NCBI GenBank assembly: GCA_043739185.1
Contig: JAYUEN010000386.1
Span: 64,001 to 128,000 of the forward strand
DNA: 64,000 nucleotides
Reading direction: 5' to 3'
Source: Bdellovibrionales bacterium
Lineage (GTDB): Bacteria; Bdellovibrionota; Bdellovibrionia; Bdellovibrionales; JAMPXM01
A model generated the notes under the pieces. That model saw nothing but the letters and a program-made list of their open reading frames with translations, had not been told where the DNA came from and ran no database searches. A program made the position numbers and the translations under genes. Positions 1,700 to 38,165 of the stretch are shown here, one piece after another (positions within the stretch are counted from its first letter, which is position 1; each line of letters begins with the position of its first letter).

Positions 1700-2572
1700 A
1701 TGAGTCCAAATCAGATCGTGAAAATTAAAAATTCAACTCCACTTGAATTTGGCGGACGCAATATTCCGGTGATTGCGGGGCCGTGCGCGCTTGAGTCTCA
1801 AGAACAAATGTTGATGACAGCAAGTGGAGTAAAAAATTGCGGCGCAAGTATTTTGCGCGGAGGCATCTACAAGATGCGCACCAATCCAAATTCTTTTCAA
1901 GGTCTTGGCGACAAAGCTTTTGGATTTATCAATCAAGTTAAGGCCGCAGTTCAAATGCCACTTATATCAGAAGTGGTCGATCCAAGACAGATTTCAGAAA
2001 TGCTTGGTTCAGTCGATATTTTTCAAATTGGCTCTCGCAATATGTATAATTATGCGCTGTTAAAAGAAATTGCGAAGACCGATAAACCAGTTGTGCTGAA
2101 GCGTGGGTTCTCGGCAACTATTGAAGAGTGGCTTAATGCGGCCGACTATATTCTTCAAGGCGGAAACCAAAATGTTATTTTGTGTGAGCGTGGCATCCGC
2201 AGCTTCGACACCACCACGCGCAATACTCTAGATCTCAATGCTGTGGCCTATATCAAGGCGCACACCAAATTTCCGATTCTAGTCGATCCTTCTCACGGAA
2301 CAGGTCGACCAGAGCTCATTGCTCCCATGGCGGCTGCGGCAATTGCTGCCGGTGCCGACGGGCTCATGATTGAAGTTCATATTGAACCAAAAAAATCTTT
2401 TAGTGATGCCTTTCAAGCACTGAGCATCGAACAATTCGCTGAGGTTATGAAGCTCTGCCGTTCAGTAGCCGCGGCTTGTGGTCGTGAGATTTTGCCTGAA
2501 GGATATAGTAAGCGGTCAGTAACTTATGATTCGGTGGTTAATCCAACTGACTCAGCGAATTTGGTAATGTGA
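1700..2572 (+). CDS. aroF: DAHP synthase, type I-beta, catalytic domain only
   Basis: IAGPCALES, RGGIYKMRT, QIGSRNM, LKRG, ILCERGIR, DPSHGTG, DGLMIEVH. Confidence 0.92.
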   Translation: MSPNQIVKIKNSTPLEFGGRNIPVIAGPCALESQEQMLMTASGVKNCGASILRGGIYKMRTNPNSFQGLGDKAFGFINQVKAAVQMPLISEVVDPRQISEMLGSVDIFQIGSRNMYNYALLKEIAKTDKPVVLKRGFSATIEEWLNAADYILQGGNQNVILCERGIRSFDTTTRNTLDLNAVAYIKAHTKFPILVDPSHGTGRPELIAPMAAAAIAAGADGLMIEVHIEPKKSFSDAFQALSIEQFAEVMKLCRSVAAACGREILPEGYSKRSVTYDSVVNPTDSANLVM

Positions 2573-3291
2573 TCGTGCAAAATTTTGTCGGCCCAGAATC
2601 AGTCAAAATCAAAAATATGTTTAGCAGCGTGGCTGCAAATTACGATCGGGCCAATAATATTCTCTCCGTAGGAATTCATCATCTCTGGCGTAAAAGTTTA
2701 GTTCAGTGGAGTGCCGCTCGTAACGGAACTCAAATTCTAGATTGCGCCTCCGGAACTGGCGACCTGGCCATCGAATTCAAAAAAGTGGTGGGCCATGAAG
2801 GCTCAGTTACCGGCACAGATTTTTGTGCAGATATGCTGACCACCGCTCCACAAAAGGCTCGCGCGCAAGGCCTTGAAATTAAATTTGAAACTGCAGATGT
2901 GACAGCTCTTCCCTATGCGGACGCCAGTTTTGATGTGGTCAGTATTTCTTTTGGAATTCGCAATGTTCAAGATCCGTTACGTGCACTGCGAGAAATGGCC
3001 CGTGTTTGCAAACCCGGCGGCCGCGTGATGATTCTCGAATTTGGTCAACCAACAATTCCGGTAGTTCGCGAATTTTATAAATTTTATTCTGAAAGAGCTT
3101 TGCCTTACCTAGGCGGGTTTATCACCGGCAATACATCTGCATATAAATATCTACAGTCCTCCTCAGCACATTTTCCCTGCGGAAAAGAATTTGCCGATTT
3201 AGTCAAAAGCAGCGGTGCATATGATGGCTGCGAATTCCGCAAATTAAGCCTAGGTATCGCCTGGATGTATCGCCTGAATGTACCTGCTTAG
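2569..3291 (+). CDS. ubiE: Demethylmenaquinone/ubiquinone methyltransferase (UbiE/MenG)
   Basis: MFSSVAANYD, LDCASGTGD, ISFGIRNV, KPGGRVMILEF, AYKYL. Confidence 0.93.
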   Translation: MIVQNFVGPESVKIKNMFSSVAANYDRANNILSVGIHHLWRKSLVQWSAARNGTQILDCASGTGDLAIEFKKVVGHEGSVTGTDFCADMLTTAPQKARAQGLEIKFETADVTALPYADASFDVVSISFGIRNVQDPLRALREMARVCKPGGRVMILEFGQPTIPVVREFYKFYSERALPYLGGFITGNTSAYKYLQSSSAHFPCGKEFADLVKSSGAYDGCEFRKLSLGIAWMYRLNVPA

Positions 3292-3347
3292 TTTTGGAGG
3301 CGCGGCGTATTGAACGCCGTGCGCCTCCAAAACTAAGCAGGTACATT
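3277..3347. repeat. REP-like palindrome doublet (family 1) upstream of the RAYT transposase
   Basis: Perfect 27-bp inverted arms AATGTACCTGCTTAGTTTTGGAGGCGC (3277-3303 and 3321-3347) around an inner GGCGT-attga-ACGCC hairpin. Confidence 0.93.
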
Positions 3348-3414
3348 TCGGATCCCAACCCCGTTTAATTTGATCCTGTCTTTGGCATGAAATTGCAATG
3401 TTGCATCGATTGCG

Positions 3415-4053
3415 ATGTTAAAAGAAAAATCAAATGCATTCGAATTTCCTCCGATCCACATAAGTGCTCGTTGTATAAACAAGCAGTGGTTTGACTTACC
3501 CCTCGAGCAAGTTTGGAGAATTTTTGAAAACTATCTTTTCTTTGTCCATCATGCTTTTGAAATTGAGATCATTTCATTTGTACTAATGTCCAACCATTTT
3601 CACCTATTGGTTCGGGTGCCTCAGGGCAATCTTAGTCAGGCGATGAACTATTTTATGCGAGAGACAAGTCGACAGATCGGCAGGGACGCGGGGAGGATCA
3701 ATCAAACTTACGGCGGTCGATACTTCAGATGTTATATTCATTCAAATAATTATTTCTTGAGCGCTTACAAATATGTTTACCGCAATCCGGTCGAATCCGG
3801 CGCCGCGAAAAAAGTTGAAGACTACAAATTTTCAAGTTTATACGCAATTTTGGGCGGACAACACTCGATGATTCCAATTGCTCAGGATCAATTACTTTTT
3901 TCGGATATTGCCGGGACTTTGCATTGGCTCAATGCTGGACGAGAAAGCTCAAACTATTTAGCAATGAAGAGCGCGCTTAAAAAGAAAAAAATGGAGTTTG
4001 GAAACGACCGAAAAACGCGAAAGCCCCATATTTTAACTACTGATCTATATTGA
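3415..4053 (+). mobile_element. REP-associated tyrosine transposase (RAYT; IS200/IS605-like HUH Y1 family)
   Basis: HISAR, FVLMSNHFHLL (HUH), YKYVYRNPV (catalytic Tyr region), YKFSS; flanked on both sides by the same palindromic arm. Confidence 0.9.
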
Positions 4054-4756
4054 ATTGGAGCGGCGCGCCTCCAAAACTAAGCAGGTACATTCTGGCTTTG
4101 GAGAAGACTCGGCTACCGAAAAATCCGCGGTAAGCGGAGAGCGGACTGGGGTGAACGCTCTCTAAAACCAAATGCTTTTTGCGGTCGATTTTTGCGCCTT
4201 TTTTTTGCGCGTAGGCGCCCCACAAAATGAATACAAGATGCTCGCGCTCTTCACTTAAAACTTCGATTACTTTGTCGGTGAATAACTCCCAGCCTCGGTT
4301 TTGGTGTGAACCTGCACGGCCTGATTCAACTGTCATCACACTGTTTAAAAGTAAGATCCCCTGCTGTGCCCATGGGAGGAGATTTCCGTGAGTCGGGCGT
4401 TTGATACCAAGATCGCTTTCAAGTTCTTTGAAAATATTTAAGAGCGAGGGTGGAGGGGGTACACCTCTTGGAACTGAAAAACTGAGACCGTGGGCTTGGC
4501 CGGGCCCATGATATGGATCTTGTCCTAATATTACCACGCGAACTTTCTCAAATGGAGTTTCGCGAAAAGCAGCAAATATATCGCTAGGTTTTGGATAGAT
4601 GATTTTTTTTGCTGCCCGTTCTTTTTGCAAAAAAGCACGCAGAGATAGCATATATTCTTTAGAGAATTCTGGGAGAAGACGGGCCTTCCAACTTTCCTCT
4701 AATTTTATCTCACTATAGTCGAATTTTTCAGCAAAGTTTTGCGATTGCATTTTCAT
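4037..4756 (-). CDS. ung: Uracil-DNA glycosylase family 1
   Basis: GQDPYH, AHGLSFSV, PPSLLNI, LLLN, HPSPLS. Confidence 0.96.
   Translation of the reverse strand: MKMQSQNFAEKFDYSEIKLEESWKARLLPEFSKEYMLSLRAFLQKERAAKKIIYPKPSDIFAAFRETPFEKVRVVILGQDPYHGPGQAHGLSFSVPRGVPPPPSLLNIFKELESDLGIKRPTHGNLLPWAQQGILLLNSVMTVESGRAGSHQNRGWELFTDKVIEVLSEEREHLVFILWGAYAQKKGAKIDRKKHLVLESVHPSPLSAYRGFFGSRVFSKARMYLLSFGGAPLQFNIDQ
4064..4092. repeat. Single REP family 1 arm downstream of the RAYT, inside ung
   Basis: Exact reverse complement of 3276-3304 (29 nt); TTGGAG at 4055-4060 may be a remnant of the partner arm. Confidence 0.9.
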
Positions 4757-4852: not shown

Positions 4853-5173
4853 ATGAACTATGTAAGTCCAGATAAGGAACTCCAGGCTTATATTTACCAA
4901 CAGATTTCAGAGCTTGAGCCGTTTTTATTACCCAATACGCAAGTGAACGTTCTGGTTCAAAATGAAAAGAAAGCGAAGAGCGTTAAGCTCTCGGTATCTG
5001 TTCCGGCGGGAACACTTGAGGCCGAAGCGGCAGATAAAAATATATACAAAGCTATTCGAGATGCCAAACAGGTTTTGTTATTTCAGATTGATGAAATAAA
5101 TAACGAGACGGATTCTGTTGAGCGTGATCTAAAAGTTAGAACTTATATGAACGGAAGCCACCAGCTACATTGA
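4853..5173 (+). CDS. HPF/RaiA-like small protein
   Basis: AAGGAGG RBS; LEAEAADKNIYKAIRDAKQVL resembles the HPF/RaiA strand-helix motif. Confidence 0.55.
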   Translation: MNYVSPDKELQAYIYQQISELEPFLLPNTQVNVLVQNEKKAKSVKLSVSVPAGTLEAEAADKNIYKAIRDAKQVLLFQIDEINNETDSVERDLKVRTYMNGSHQLH

Positions 5174-6268
5174 TTACTTCTCTCTTAAGAAAGCATTTTG
5201 TTGATCTTGCGAACGGTATCTGCGGTTCACCATTTCAAAAATATTGTCGCCTTTTACTCCGATGTTTTCATTACCAAGTTTTTTAGAAAGTCCTGCGACA
5301 CTTGCTTTGCCTGAACCTGCACCGCGGCCGTTGCCATTGAGGCGTGAATTCAAAAGGCTATTCAAATCCATCGAGGCATTTGGATTGGCGGCACCTGCAG
5401 TTGCACGACCGCCGCCTCCGCCAGAGTATCCGAAGCCGATACCAGAAGCATTGGCACCAGCTTTAGCGAGCAATTTAGACTCCAATGCTTTTTCATCACC
5501 TACCATTTTATCAATATTTGCGACGTCAAAGCCGCTGGCTTTCATTGATCCAGGAGTAGAATTAGCTGGAACAGTTTTGCCATTTGGTAAAGTAATTGCG
5601 CCAGTAGCAGAATCAATTGCAACGCCAGCAGCAGCGAGGCTTCCTTGAATCTTCGATAAGTCTGCACCTACGGTAGTCGTAGCGCCACCTCCGGGGCCTT
5701 TGCCGCCATTATTATTATTATTATTTCCGTTTGGATCGGTAGCACTGCCGCCGCCACCGGGGTCACCCGTGCCGTAATTTCCTCCGGTGCCGTAGCCGAA
5801 ATCGGGATTGTAAGCTCCGTTGACATTGTCTGCACCATTTTGAGCAGAAGCGGTTTGTATGAGTTGCATAGCACATTGGGCGGCCATCACGCATGCCATA
5901 GCATTGTGAGGACCACACATACTTGCCATATAAATGCCAACCCCACCAGTGATGACCTCTCCGACAATTGCTAAACCTGAGCCGCCATGTGAGGCGCCCG
6001 CAGCATTTTGCATACCATTAAGGCCCGCAGTCGCCGCGGCAGAATTACCGGCCGCATTGCCCGCATTAATCGTTTGAGTCATGCCATTGCCAGCACTACC
6101 TCTGCCAACTTGAATAGGTTGCGTGGGGGCGATGGGTTGGGCGGTTGATCCAGAGGGGGTTCCTACCGTTGGCGTTTGTGCCATAAGTTGAGGCGACAAA
6201 AGCAAAGACGCAAATAAAATGAGACCACGCGAGCTAAACAAATTTAGTTTATTAATAGTTTGATCCAT
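5174..6268 (-). CDS. Secreted Gly/Ala/Asn-rich hypothetical protein
   Basis: Signal-peptide-like N-terminus, low-complexity linkers, C-terminal GDNIFEMVNRRY motif shared with its neighbour. Confidence 0.75.
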   Translation of the reverse strand: MDQTINKLNLFSSRGLILFASLLLSPQLMAQTPTVGTPSGSTAQPIAPTQPIQVGRGSAGNGMTQTINAGNAAGNSAAATAGLNGMQNAAGASHGGSGLAIVGEVITGGVGIYMASMCGPHNAMACVMAAQCAMQLIQTASAQNGADNVNGAYNPDFGYGTGGNYGTGDPGGGGSATDPNGNNNNNNGGKGPGGGATTTVGADLSKIQGSLAAAGVAIDSATGAITLPNGKTVPANSTPGSMKASGFDVANIDKMVGDEKALESKLLAKAGANASGIGFGYSGGGGGRATAGAANPNASMDLNSLLNSRLNGNGRGAGSGKASVAGLSKKLGNENIGVKGDNIFEMVNRRYRSQDQQNAFLREK

Positions 6269-6344
6269 AATTTCGCATCCTCTGTTTTAATCTAGATTTA
6301 AAAAATTCAATTATTAATCGATTTTCAAAACTTCAACGAACTAA

Positions 6345-8225
6345 CTATGGAGGTAGCAAATCACCCTTTTTGATTTGGTATCTGCGCGAGACCTTTTCCC
6401 AAATACTTGGGCCATTGGGACCAGTCACGCCGTCTTGAGCCGATACACTCATGCCTGCAACTGCACGATTGACATAGTCGTTACGCTTTGGAAGTAAACC
6501 ATTTAAGTTTAGTTTAGTTGCGAGTGCTTTGACCGCACCCGCGATTCCGCCAGGAGCGGCTGCTGCACCGGCAGCATGACCATAAGAAAATCCACCTTGA
6601 CCAGCTGAGAATCCACCAAAGACATTTCCACCATTGCCGGCTCCGGCAGCTGGTGCGTCTTCAGCATTGGCTGCAGTTGCAGCGCCATTTTGTCCACCGC
6701 CGCCACCACCGAAACCACCGCCACCACCACCAGTGGCACCGCCCGCAGCTTTACCAGTATCAGGATTTGCCGTTGGCATTTGAAATCCACCACGGGTTCC
6801 GCTTCCTTGATCACCTGGTAATCCCTTGCTAAGTGCACCGCCCGAAGCGAGCCGAACTGCGATTCCACCAGGAGCCGCCGCCAATGCCGGATTCAAACAC
6901 TTGGTATCGCCCGGATTAGTTGCGCAGTAACATTCAAGTGCGTGCGTGGCCGCATAGTTTGGATTGCCAGCACAAGTCTCAGCTAATACCGGAGGCGGCG
7001 TTGCCGCAGCGGCAGCATTGTAAGCCTTTGCACAATCGGCAGCACCTTTTGCAGTAAGACCCATTGCCAGTGCATTGAGAGCCGCTTGTGCCGCTTGCAT
7101 ACTATAGCCGTTGCAAGTTGATTTGTTGGCATTATAAGAATTCACTTTGAGTTTATCGTTGGCGCGATTTGGATTTTCAGGATTATTAGATGAAGCAATC
7201 AATTCAGGAGGTGGAGTACAAGTATCGCGACAAGCAAATATTTGCTGAGTACAAGCGGCGGCAACGCCACCCGAAAACAATTCTTGCATGCTCGCGATTT
7301 TAGATTGCATCTGACAAGCAGCTCCCGCATTCGCAGTCGAAGCATTTGCCATCGCCGCAACCGTTGCTGCTTGCTGAACTAAACTTTGCGCATTGGCCGC
7401 ACTACAAAAGCTCTTGGTCTGAGCTGCTTGAGAATTACAAGGTTCATTTGCATCTGCATTGCTGTATTTGCCGTTGCCGCTGGTATCATCAGGGTTCTTA
7501 TCATTGATCGATGGATTGACCGGAACGAACTTGGTTCCCGAGTCGTTACCTGCAGCTCCGTTACCGAGATCACACATTAACTTTCCGTTTACGTACTGAG
7601 CACTCATGCTCGTTGCACAAGAGGGGTCCTCAACTAGTTTCGGGCCGCCAGTTGCAGCCGCTGCCGCAGGTGCTGGTGCGGGCGCAGCACTCGGATTACA
7701 CATCGGATCGTTTGAACCTGGATAACAGGTTCCTGCAGGATGAGATGACTGAAGCACATATCCACCACCAGGATTTCCGCCACCCGCCGACGCTGCATCT
7801 GGCGCCGTAGGTGCCGAAGGACAATGTCCATATTGATAACAATCTGCTTGAGCGGCGGCATCTAAATCAGCTTGCGTAGGTCCATTTCCTTGTCCTTGTA
7901 CATTCGGCTCGCATGAATCTACACCATAATCTCCTGGGACGTTATGCTCAGTGGCTCCACATACGGTTCTCTTTGCTTGCGTCCCTTGAGGATTTTGTAC
8001 ACTAGGCGCAGGAGCAGCAACTCTCCTGGCGGGCGCTGCTTTTTTTCCGCTGGGAATGTAGGTCGGTTGCGAACCGCTCGAGGCACCGCTGCAGCCACTG
8101 TCCATTATATTTCCCAAAGCATTTTCGGATTCACATTGTGCTTGGGCAAATTCAGCACTTACAATAACAAAACTTACGAGTAGTGCGAATTTGAGAAATC
8201 CAAGACAAATTAGATTTTTCACCAC
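6345..8225 (-). CDS. Secreted Cys/Gly/Ala-rich hypothetical protein
   Basis: Signal peptide ending AQA, many Cys, C-terminal GPSIWEKVSRRY motif; GAGG RBS. Confidence 0.75.
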   Translation of the reverse strand: MVKNLICLGFLKFALLVSFVIVSAEFAQAQCESENALGNIMDSGCSGASSGSQPTYIPSGKKAAPARRVAAPAPSVQNPQGTQAKRTVCGATEHNVPGDYGVDSCEPNVQGQGNGPTQADLDAAAQADCYQYGHCPSAPTAPDAASAGGGNPGGGYVLQSSHPAGTCYPGSNDPMCNPSAAPAPAPAAAAATGGPKLVEDPSCATSMSAQYVNGKLMCDLGNGAAGNDSGTKFVPVNPSINDKNPDDTSGNGKYSNADANEPCNSQAAQTKSFCSAANAQSLVQQAATVAAMANASTANAGAACQMQSKIASMQELFSGGVAAACTQQIFACRDTCTPPPELIASSNNPENPNRANDKLKVNSYNANKSTCNGYSMQAAQAALNALAMGLTAKGAADCAKAYNAAAAATPPPVLAETCAGNPNYAATHALECYCATNPGDTKCLNPALAAAPGGIAVRLASGGALSKGLPGDQGSGTRGGFQMPTANPDTGKAAGGATGGGGGGFGGGGGGQNGAATAANAEDAPAAGAGNGGNVFGGFSAGQGGFSYGHAAGAAAAPGGIAGAVKALATKLNLNGLLPKRNDYVNRAVAGMSVSAQDGVTGPNGPSIWEKVSRRYQIKKGDLLPP

Positions 8226-37483: not shown

Positions 37484-37542
37484 GCTTGAAAAATATAAGA
37501 TAATCACAAAAGCATCTAGGTTCTTTTAGGGCGCGGTGCGTT

Positions 37543-37609
37543 TCCGGAATGTACCTGCTTCTTTTTGGAGGCGCATTGCAACTCCAAAAAGAAGCAGGTA
37601 CATTCCGGA
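37543..37609. repeat. REP family 1 doublet, remote copy
   Basis: Perfect 28-bp arms TCCGGAATGTACCTGCTTCTTTTTGGAG with an 11-nt loop; differs from the 3277 arm by AG>CT in both arms. Confidence 0.93.
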
Positions 37610-37610
37610 G

Positions 37611-38165
37611 ATGCGATGCATATGGGCAGAAAAGTCAAAGAATCCACTAATGGTTAAATATCATGACGACGAATGGGGTCGGCCCGTTCATGAGGATCAG
37701 AAGCATTTTGAATTTGTTGTTTTAGAGTCGGCCCAAGCCGGCCTCAGCTGGGAAATTATCTTGAATCGCCGAGAAAACTACCGAAAGGCCTTTGCGGAAT
37801 TCGACCCAGCAAAGGTCGCTCGTTTTTCTGAGAAAAAAATTCAAAAACTACTTCAAAATGCTGGCATCATAAGAAATCAACTTAAGATACGAGCCACGGT
37901 AAGTAATGCTCAGGCTTTTTTAAAGATCCAAAAAGAGTTTGGGAGTTTTGATAAATATATATGGAGCTTTGTAAAATCTAAGACCATTGTTCGTAGGCCA
38001 AGGGGCCGCGGAGACTTTCGCGCCACCGATCGCAACAGCGATGCCCTTTCAAAAGACTTAAAGTTACGCGGCTTTAAATTTATGGGGTCAACAATTTGTT
38101 ATGCCCATATGCAAGCAATTGGCTTGATCGATGAACATCAAGCAAGCTGTTTTCGCGCTAAATAG
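37611..38165 (+). CDS. tag: DNA-3-methyladenine glycosylase I (start moved to the ATG at 37611)
   Basis: RCIW, YHDDEWG, ESAQAGLSW, IIRNQLKI, GFKFMGST, EHQASC. Confidence 0.95.
   Translation: MRCIWAEKSKNPLMVKYHDDEWGRPVHEDQKHFEFVVLESAQAGLSWEIILNRRENYRKAFAEFDPAKVARFSEKKIQKLLQNAGIIRNQLKIRATVSNAQAFLKIQKEFGSFDKYIWSFVKSKTIVRRPRGRGDFRATDRNSDALSKDLKLRGFKFMGSTICYAHMQAIGLIDEHQASCFRAK

Follow-up and report, generated by a model that had tools for sequence, protein, structure and literature searches.

Several described systems come close to the arrangement analysed here. In the elements described as TIRtrons with their TIRYT transposases (PMC3733652) and as TnpA-Y1 subclass 2.1 (Quentin et al. 2018, PMC6006769), a Y1 HUH transposase is accompanied by inverted arms that are not self-complementary and by a moderately abundant dispersed family, partly present as dimers. 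The element at the ung locus of a Bdellovibrionales bacterium is alike in these respects, and its NHFH and Y-x-x-x-N-P motifs fit those given for subclass 2.1 and class 2 in PMC6006769. Repeats that overlap the ends of ORFs and give them stop codons, as well as flanks that overlap the transposase genes, are also on record in PMC3733652. Relative to the TIRtrons as characterised there, the core at the present locus is RGGT(A/G)CC, not GGGGWSAS, and a terminal arm together with the 3' end of the transposase gene encodes the conserved last helix of a host enzyme. The REPIN-RAYT systems (bioRxiv 10.1101/2021.07.10.451892; PMC5581495) resemble the present one in having a single-locus transposase across species, dispersed hairpin doublets and species-specific repeats that match the transposase flanks; long-lived transposase-repeat pairs with lineage-specific sequence are likewise part of that account (bioRxiv 10.1101/2021.07.10.451892). 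On the other hand, the element at ung has no GTAG/GGAG foot, no hairpin within a single arm and a score below the cut-off of NF047646, and one of its flanking copies is coding, not extragenic. Moreover, since a close paralogue with similar arms is found elsewhere in one congener, the element family still seems to be mobile, unlike REPIN-RAYT. In the Rickettsia RPEs and MITE fusions (Delihas 2011, PMC3184786; PMC3733652), repeats also code for in-frame residues, some of them C-terminal and some in DNA repair genes; these are described as insertions or extensions, whereas at ung the repeat takes the place, in register, of a conserved part of the structure and has persisted in several species while synonymous sites became saturated. 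Thus repeats that overwrite gene ends are known already, and what is unusual is the long-lived double use and an ung copy that tracks the repeat family across species. A literature search, outside which most subscription journals lay, returned no published account of this ung case, and the four text supplements of PMC3733652 do not contain the words 'uracil', 'glycosylase' or 'Bdellovibrio'.

The window, that is, the whole stretch analysed, comprises 64,000 nt of a Bdellovibrionales bacterium (GCA_043739185.1, contig JAYUEN010000386.1, positions 64,001-128,000, forward strand); its genome is labelled G000, its congeners G001-G003, and the prefixes L and P denote loci and proteins. The ung gene (4037..4756, minus strand) encodes a family-1 uracil-DNA glycosylase of 239 aa with intact GQDPY and HPSPLS motifs, and in 4/4 genomes of the genus its convergent neighbour is the ubiE/menG methyltransferase gene (2569..3291, plus strand). 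Between them lies the gene of a Y1 HUH tyrosine transposase of the RAYT/TIRYT-like kind (3415..4053, plus strand; 212 aa; NHFH and Y-x-x-x-N-P; Pfam Y1_Tnp). The original prediction, made from the letters of the window, had placed a 17-bp overlap between ung and the transposase stop and had read the peptide RMYLLSFGGA in the end of Ung on the minus strand; both observations hold. The overlap is 4037-4053, and the right terminal arm (4065..4093, minus strand, 29 nt) supplies codons R222 to G230 and two bases of A231, giving the peptide RMYLLSFGG(A) in the last helix of Ung. P232 (4063-4061) lies just beyond the 29-mer, in the variable inner end of the arm, and the stretch from P232 to the stop (PLQFNIDQ; 4037..4064, minus strand) consists of the inner arm end, a spacer and, read antisense, the final five codons of the transposase gene with their stop. 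Ung is therefore host-derived to about K220/A221 and element-derived from about R222 to the stop (~18 codons). The left outer arm (3275..3303, plus strand) contributes the final codons of ubiE together with their stop (NVPA-stop), in a frame that differs from that used in ung; with the second arm of the left doublet (3321..3349, minus strand) it forms a REPIN-like hairpin (3272-3352). The match between the left and right arms spans 3272-3307 and 4061-4096 and is 94% complementary. A dispersed doublet of the same repeat family lies at 37538..37614, with arms at 37546-37574 and 37578-37606. In G002 and G003 the same order of ung, arm, transposase and ubiE is found with species-specific arms, and in all three genomes no stop interrupts the frame before Ung has reached its proper length.

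The enzyme scores above the NCBIfam cut-offs for Ung (NF003589, 333 bits against 223; TIGR00628, 271.8 bits against 185.75). An alignment of its tail with solved Ungs such as 3zoq needs no gaps and puts Y-L, G and P at the positions where the prediction had expected them. Compared with the family-1 enzymes of E. coli (1eug) and B. subtilis (3zoq), the full-length fold, the catalytic motifs and the predicted C-terminal helix are alike, whereas the N, I, D and W of the canonical tail have become element-coded R, L, Q and F. Only Y-L, G and P of the C-terminal signature N-x-Y-L...P-I-D-W are kept; the replaced residues are conserved in canonical Ungs at 110/112 (N), 108/112 (I), 83/112 (D) and 112/112 (W). 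This mismatch lowers the canonical status of the tail, not the membership of the enzyme in family 1. On the profile of Ung tails, the 112 canonical tails average 24.4 bits when scored in-sample, and none falls below 10.7; the window tail, with 0.9 bits, is thus a weak, partial Ung mimic. The resemblance between arm and Ung tail exceeds chance; the score of the arm on this profile is matched by 62 of 100,000 random 10-codon genomic windows.

Residue F235 of the tail sits over the antisense of the transposase stop codon. From the genetic code, a Trp codon would be impossible opposite the transposase stop, and Phe stands in its place. Among the 120 nearest Ungs, this position is Trp in 112 and Phe in 8, and all eight Phe tails fall in one clade of 12 (99/97), the other four members of which are canonical (tree of the top 30 sequences, tail removed). 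The eight Phe tails vary widely, and the G is absent in G003; all of them retain Y-L, align without a gap and have Phe where canonical tails have Trp. In the AlphaFold model of Ung, the last helix is normally placed (pLDDT ~90 for residues 211-237), and the model (residues 19-237) superposes on E. coli Ung 1eug with Z 32.4 and an rmsd of 1.5, matched to the end; this counts as weak support for the tail, because about nine in ten rows of the underlying alignment are canonical. In the Ung body (199 codons), pS is 0.75-0.77 and pN is 0.10-0.13, which shows that Ung remains under purifying selection, and activity is predicted. Since synonymous sites are saturated while Ung is selected, the arrangement is old. 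In the tail, pS is low, 0.25-0.32 over ~12 sites, and this fits the prediction for double coding. In G001-G003, the search for UDG-family genes yielded a single one per genome. The same search yielded, besides ung, two further UDG-superfamily genes in G000 (C19:1134-1643 and C425:17346-17843), and these were not found in G001-G003.

The transposase scores 34.2 bits on Pfam Y1_Tnp (cut-off 23) and 61.9 bits on the RAYT family model NF047646, which is below the cut-off of 80. Residues H61, H63, Y120, N124 and P125 are invariant in the transposase alignment (A2), in which the NHFH and Y-x-x-x-N-P motifs vary little or not at all. As in TIRtrons and TIRYTs, a Y1 HUH enzyme with HuH and Y-x-x-x-N-P is flanked by terminal inverted repeats that are unrelated to GTAG REPs; judged by the NH[YF]H motif alone, it appears to fit TnpA-Y1 subclass 2.1. 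A length of 212 aa (54/120) and a final Tyr (46/120) are features of the family. Relatives were found in 28 of the 41 genomes searched, and none came up when metagenomes were scanned with the transposase. A scan of genome contigs gave 2 loci. One observation in G000 is a truncated second transposase (G000:C188:14320-14655, L236), a C-terminal half with 36% identity and GTGCC-type motifs on both sides. Another, in G002, is a second, intact transposase at a non-ung locus (L033, G002:C394), with an arm variant of its own that has 5 matches in that genome. L033 groups with the ung-locus transposases and with P0123 (SH-aLRT 87), and because of this grouping the LY-stop ending that it has in common with them is no independent evidence.

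G000 contains 67 arms at ≤7 mismatches, many of them as inverted doublets, and 69 arm cores entered the gene-end census. Single arms fold no better than shuffled sequences (z +1.3, +1.4 and +0.4), and the doublet folds strongly (-39.5 kcal/mol, z -12.4). Hence the term REP, which the original prediction had used, does not suit the arm in ung (z +1.3), and since a single arm is not self-folding, the element is TIR/TIRYT-like and not a true REP. The doublets are REPIN-like in that inverted hairpins are dispersed and match the transposase flanks. The GT[AG]G foot of GTAG-type REPs is absent, the core being GTACC in G000, G002 and G003 and the family consensus GGTnCC. The TIR motif GGGGWSAS is not in the arm consensus either, and other TIRs too lack it, according to the TIR descriptions of PMC3733652. 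The specific arm pattern occurs in 3 of 35 family genomes, all three in the genus of the window, and it is counted 16 times in G002 and 55 times in G000. Two further features lie close to the core. At -7/-6, CC is found in 49 and 51 of 61 copies in G000, and likewise in G002, not in G003; this is either a target preference or part of the element end. By eye, tandem duplications of ~9-11 bases in up to 3 copies are seen directly outside the arm core at L002 (~2930-2975, the ubiE end of G003), L037, L043, L044, L049, L055, L061 and L071, and they are possibly scars of repeated insertion or excision at one site.

The original prediction had offered two readings of the match: the repeat was captured from the ung 3' end and then amplified, or an insertion replaced the tail with a functional mimic. 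The comparison of arms at other loci bears directly on this choice. At 24 of 31 related transposase loci, clear inverted arms share a layout that runs from an A-rich lead through GGT(A/G)CC and a T-run to a GC-rich end; the 7/31 loci without a clear arm were dropped, as was the mis-anchored L055, and L031, L032, L059 and L033 were also left out of the arm profile, which was built from 38 arms of 19 non-ung elements. For the controls, 5/110 ung tails out of canonical register (including the four tails of the genus) were removed, leaving 105; a metagenome scan with the alignment of the Ung clade supplied, among the matches listed, relatives of 53-65%, which served as canonical controls. The three ung-embedded arms score 15.3 (window), 18.2 and 22.1 on the arm profile, within the range of held-out family arms (mean 22.4, minimum 6.4), whereas the 105 canonical ung tails have a mean of -22.6 and a maximum of 0.7. 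Canonical ung 3' ends are thus not arm-like, contrary to what capture would have predicted. With the core omitted, the embedded arms still score 6.5, 3.0 and 5.3, and no canonical tail exceeds -2.9. A T-run at +12..+14 is present in 34/38 arms and 0/105 canonical ung tails, and the Phe at Y+4 that it encodes in the ung frame appears in 33/38 family arms and 0/112 canonical Ungs. As Ung mimics, the ung-embedded arms rank 1, 2 and 4 of 46. The best non-ung arm (L041 right, -3.1) lies ~4 bits below the 0.9 of the window; with a non-ung arm so nearly equal, the consensus of the family came close to a serviceable peptide from the outset, the remainder being the work of survival or later selection. 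One remnant of the capture idea is left: 8/105 canonical ung genes have a GTACC of their own at the Y-L codons, and this core could have set the register there. By eye, the displaced native ung tail was not seen beyond the element. On these sequence comparisons, it is very likely that the arm originates from the element and that the element end overwrote the ung tail in frame. The replacement half of the prediction therefore stands, with the restriction that the mimicry is partial, N, I, D and W having been lost.

Ung is the extreme of a common event for this repeat family. Among the 69 arm cores in G000, 22 lie within 12 bases after the stop of a same-strand ORF, 8 give the stop, 2 lie in a frame that reads through them and 37 are without such an ORF, which puts 32/69 copies at a same-strand ORF end. 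For 30 of these, the stop falls at -12..+12 from the core, the background rate being 31/3000 under a looser ORF definition. Similarly, a host stop is nearby for 29 of the 40 arms at non-ung loci, with none for 7 and no room for one at 4. The end of ubiE is YRLEK-stop in G001, which has no element there, and YRLNVPA-stop in G000. A phosphodiesterase gene in G000 (G000:C101:21570-22823, PF01663; L235, L242), the second of the two read-through cases, has as its tail the same arm peptide as Ung, whereas G001 and G003 keep a native tail of 10 residues; this is an independent replicate of the tail overwrite. By eye, the native phosphodiesterase tail was not seen beyond its doublet. In a second frame, the arm gives a stop at window positions 3275-3291 and in seven other G000 ORFs, so that eight unrelated proteins end in VPA-stop (one in ITA-stop). 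In G009, of another genus, a 451-codon frame ends at the left arm of L041 in the arm-coded GYLLHF-stop, in the same frame as in ung.

Among the congeners, the ung copy follows the dispersed consensus of its species, reading LLSFGG in G000 and G002 and LLQIAE in G003, where the conserved Gly is lost. It is close to the genome consensus in G000 and is not modal in G002 or G003. In the latter two, the Y+7 codon of the ung copy differs from the repeat consensus and encodes Thr, which is the most frequent residue of Ungs at that position. A third arm variant is found in P0005 (RYLLPLSDAP), near the left arm of L033 (RYLVPLSDAA), and P0123 and P0005 presumably lie on one contig; from the likeness of the P0005 and L033 arms, the element either left the ung site or was replaced there by kin. 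The ung-locus transposase of G002 carries a frameshift (L003, ~2323-2326), so the overlap preserves the arm-derived tail and not the transposase, which limits the idea of anchoring taken up below.

In G001, ung is next to ubiE with no transposase between them, and a genome search (90% completeness) found no transposase and no arms above chance. Its Ung tail looks decayed, but the length and the Phe are kept and L.F..ID is shared without a transposase. As DNA, this tail scores -31.1 on the arm profile, like canonical ung DNA; as protein, it is marginally arm-like (-6.7, against -9.1 for the best canonical tail). P0006 and P0007, the closest Ung relatives of G001 (98/91), have arm-like scores of 16.1 and 1.0 against the same canonical best of -9.1. 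The comparison with the transposase end used 108 ung tails with enough downstream DNA; the DNA after the G001 ung stop ranks 1/105 for identity to the transposase 3' end with five window sizes, although the identity itself is modest (14-17/31 bases). In the gyrA tree, G001 is basal (93/94); alaS, secA, dnaE and a five-gene concatenation give it no firm placement, and leuS joins G000 with G003. It is probable that the transposase was secondarily lost in G001 and the tail kept as a relic, and our confidence in this is moderate in view of these differing trees.

Based on these results, the following mechanism may be proposed. A TIRtron/REPtron-like element, with a Y1 HUH transposase between inverted arms of ~30 nt and of a family common in Bdellovibrionota, may have inserted, in the ancestor of the genus, between ubiE and the convergent ung gene. 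As the comparison of loci shows, arms of this family sit at the 3' ends of genes and can overwrite the last codons. The right end would have replaced Ung from the conserved Asn on, a step that the evidence supports well, and the new tail would be made up of the arm followed by a short spacer and then the transposase end in antisense; the nearest canonical tails (P0008, P0010-P0012) were compared as proteins. The product may have survived because, in the reading that starts from the GG-TAC core, the arm encodes Y-L...G..P at the correct length, with Phe in place of Trp. Subsequently, the ung copy appears to have been homogenised with the repeats of each species, a pattern seen across the congeners, through gene conversion or transposase-driven replacement. 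The Ung tail would then change with the repeat, and selection on Ung would filter the changes. Where the transposase was lost, a step with moderate support, the tail may stay as a relic and drift. Taken as a whole, this is the explanation that we consider best, and it is likely to be correct.

Alternatives have to be weighed against this account. One variant of it has the element integrating at a pre-existing GTACC(T) in the Tyr-Leu codons of ung, by micro-homology or as a target site, so that ung contributed the first 5-7 bases and the register, which would make the Y-L arm variant of the genus host-derived in part. GTACC at the Y-L site of 8/105 canonical genes makes such a target available, few family arms (2/38) encode, next after the core residue, the Leu that is fixed in the arms of this genus, and in both ung and ubiE the CC at -7/-6 is supplied by host-type codons. 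However, the bases just upstream of the core (AAT, AAAG and AG) are those of the element consensus of each species and replace the conserved Asn, which places the junction upstream of Tyr, and Y-L arms are also found outside the genus (L041 left, L045 left). We regard this hybrid junction as possible but doubtful. A little less probable still is that the tail is near-neutral, either because the sequence of the helix hardly matters or because Ung is backed up, so that its resemblance to Ung is a by-product of the arm consensus. The similar peptides that non-ung arms give in the ung frame (L041 right), the wide differences among the eight tails with the loss of G in G003, and the two further UDG-superfamily genes in G000 would agree with such tolerated damage; it sits poorly with the retention of Y-L, of an ungapped length and of Phe for Trp in eight of eight tails, with purifying selection on the Ung body, with the single UDG-family gene found in each of G001-G003, and with the shift to Thr at Y+7 in G002 and G003.

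Capture of the arm from the native ung 3' end, with amplification by the neighbouring transposase, would account for the gapless register with Y-L, G and P, for an ung copy near the genome consensus in G000, for ung-locus arms being the best Ung mimics among 46, and for L.F..ID in G001 without a transposase. Nevertheless, the arm design is found order-wide at unrelated loci, canonical ung DNA never scores as an arm and lacks the T-run that would encode Phe, the ung copy is not modal in G002 or G003, and the same peptide overwrote the unrelated phosphodiesterase gene; capture is therefore rejected as highly improbable. An assembly artefact, which the original prediction had named as a possible refutation, might be suspected because the junction lies inside a repeat with ~67-69 copies. 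Contigs assembled from four DNA runs of one study tile the region and break inside the arms, and none spans the ung arm with 31 bases on each side, so they give no independent support for the junction. Since two congeners have the same junction, with the same gene order, species-specific arms and a frame open to the right length, an artefact can be discarded with near certainty.

If the element end did overwrite the tail of ung, as we favour, a two-way coupling may be considered, in which any loss or free mutation of the ung arm would harm the enzyme, so that the arm serves as a protected template and Ung filters arm variants by keeping Y-L and an open frame, while each sweep rewrites at least 4 Ung residues. 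This extension is speculative, and we would not expect it to hold; were it true, a host helix and genome-wide repeats would co-evolve via one 30-base stretch, anchoring the element end in the long term. The locus is a clean instance, in a bacterium, of conserved protein structure being taken over from a transposon terminus. It offers a comparative series, from canonical tails through at least 3 arm variants in Ung and a frameshifted transposase to a probable relic after loss, in which a RAYT-like flanking copy is kept in step with the dispersed family despite amino-acid changes in the host enzyme. Repeat homogenisation and its direction are thus testable at one locus with an easily assayed enzyme. 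The expectation that the locus would inform how REPs originate was not borne out: there is no evidence here that they originate from host genes, and the locus says more about where repeats land and how a host gene absorbs them.

The surroundings of ung in the window deserve brief mention. Divergent from ung, an HPF/RaiA-like ribosome-associated protein (PF02482) is encoded at 4853-5173 on the plus strand and is present at the ung locus in 12/29 of the loci of relatives. Next to it, on the minus strand (5174-8225), are genes for two Gly/Ala/Asn-rich, secreted-looking proteins of 364 and 626 aa, whose C-terminal parts contain a stretch of similar sequence (repeat family D7).
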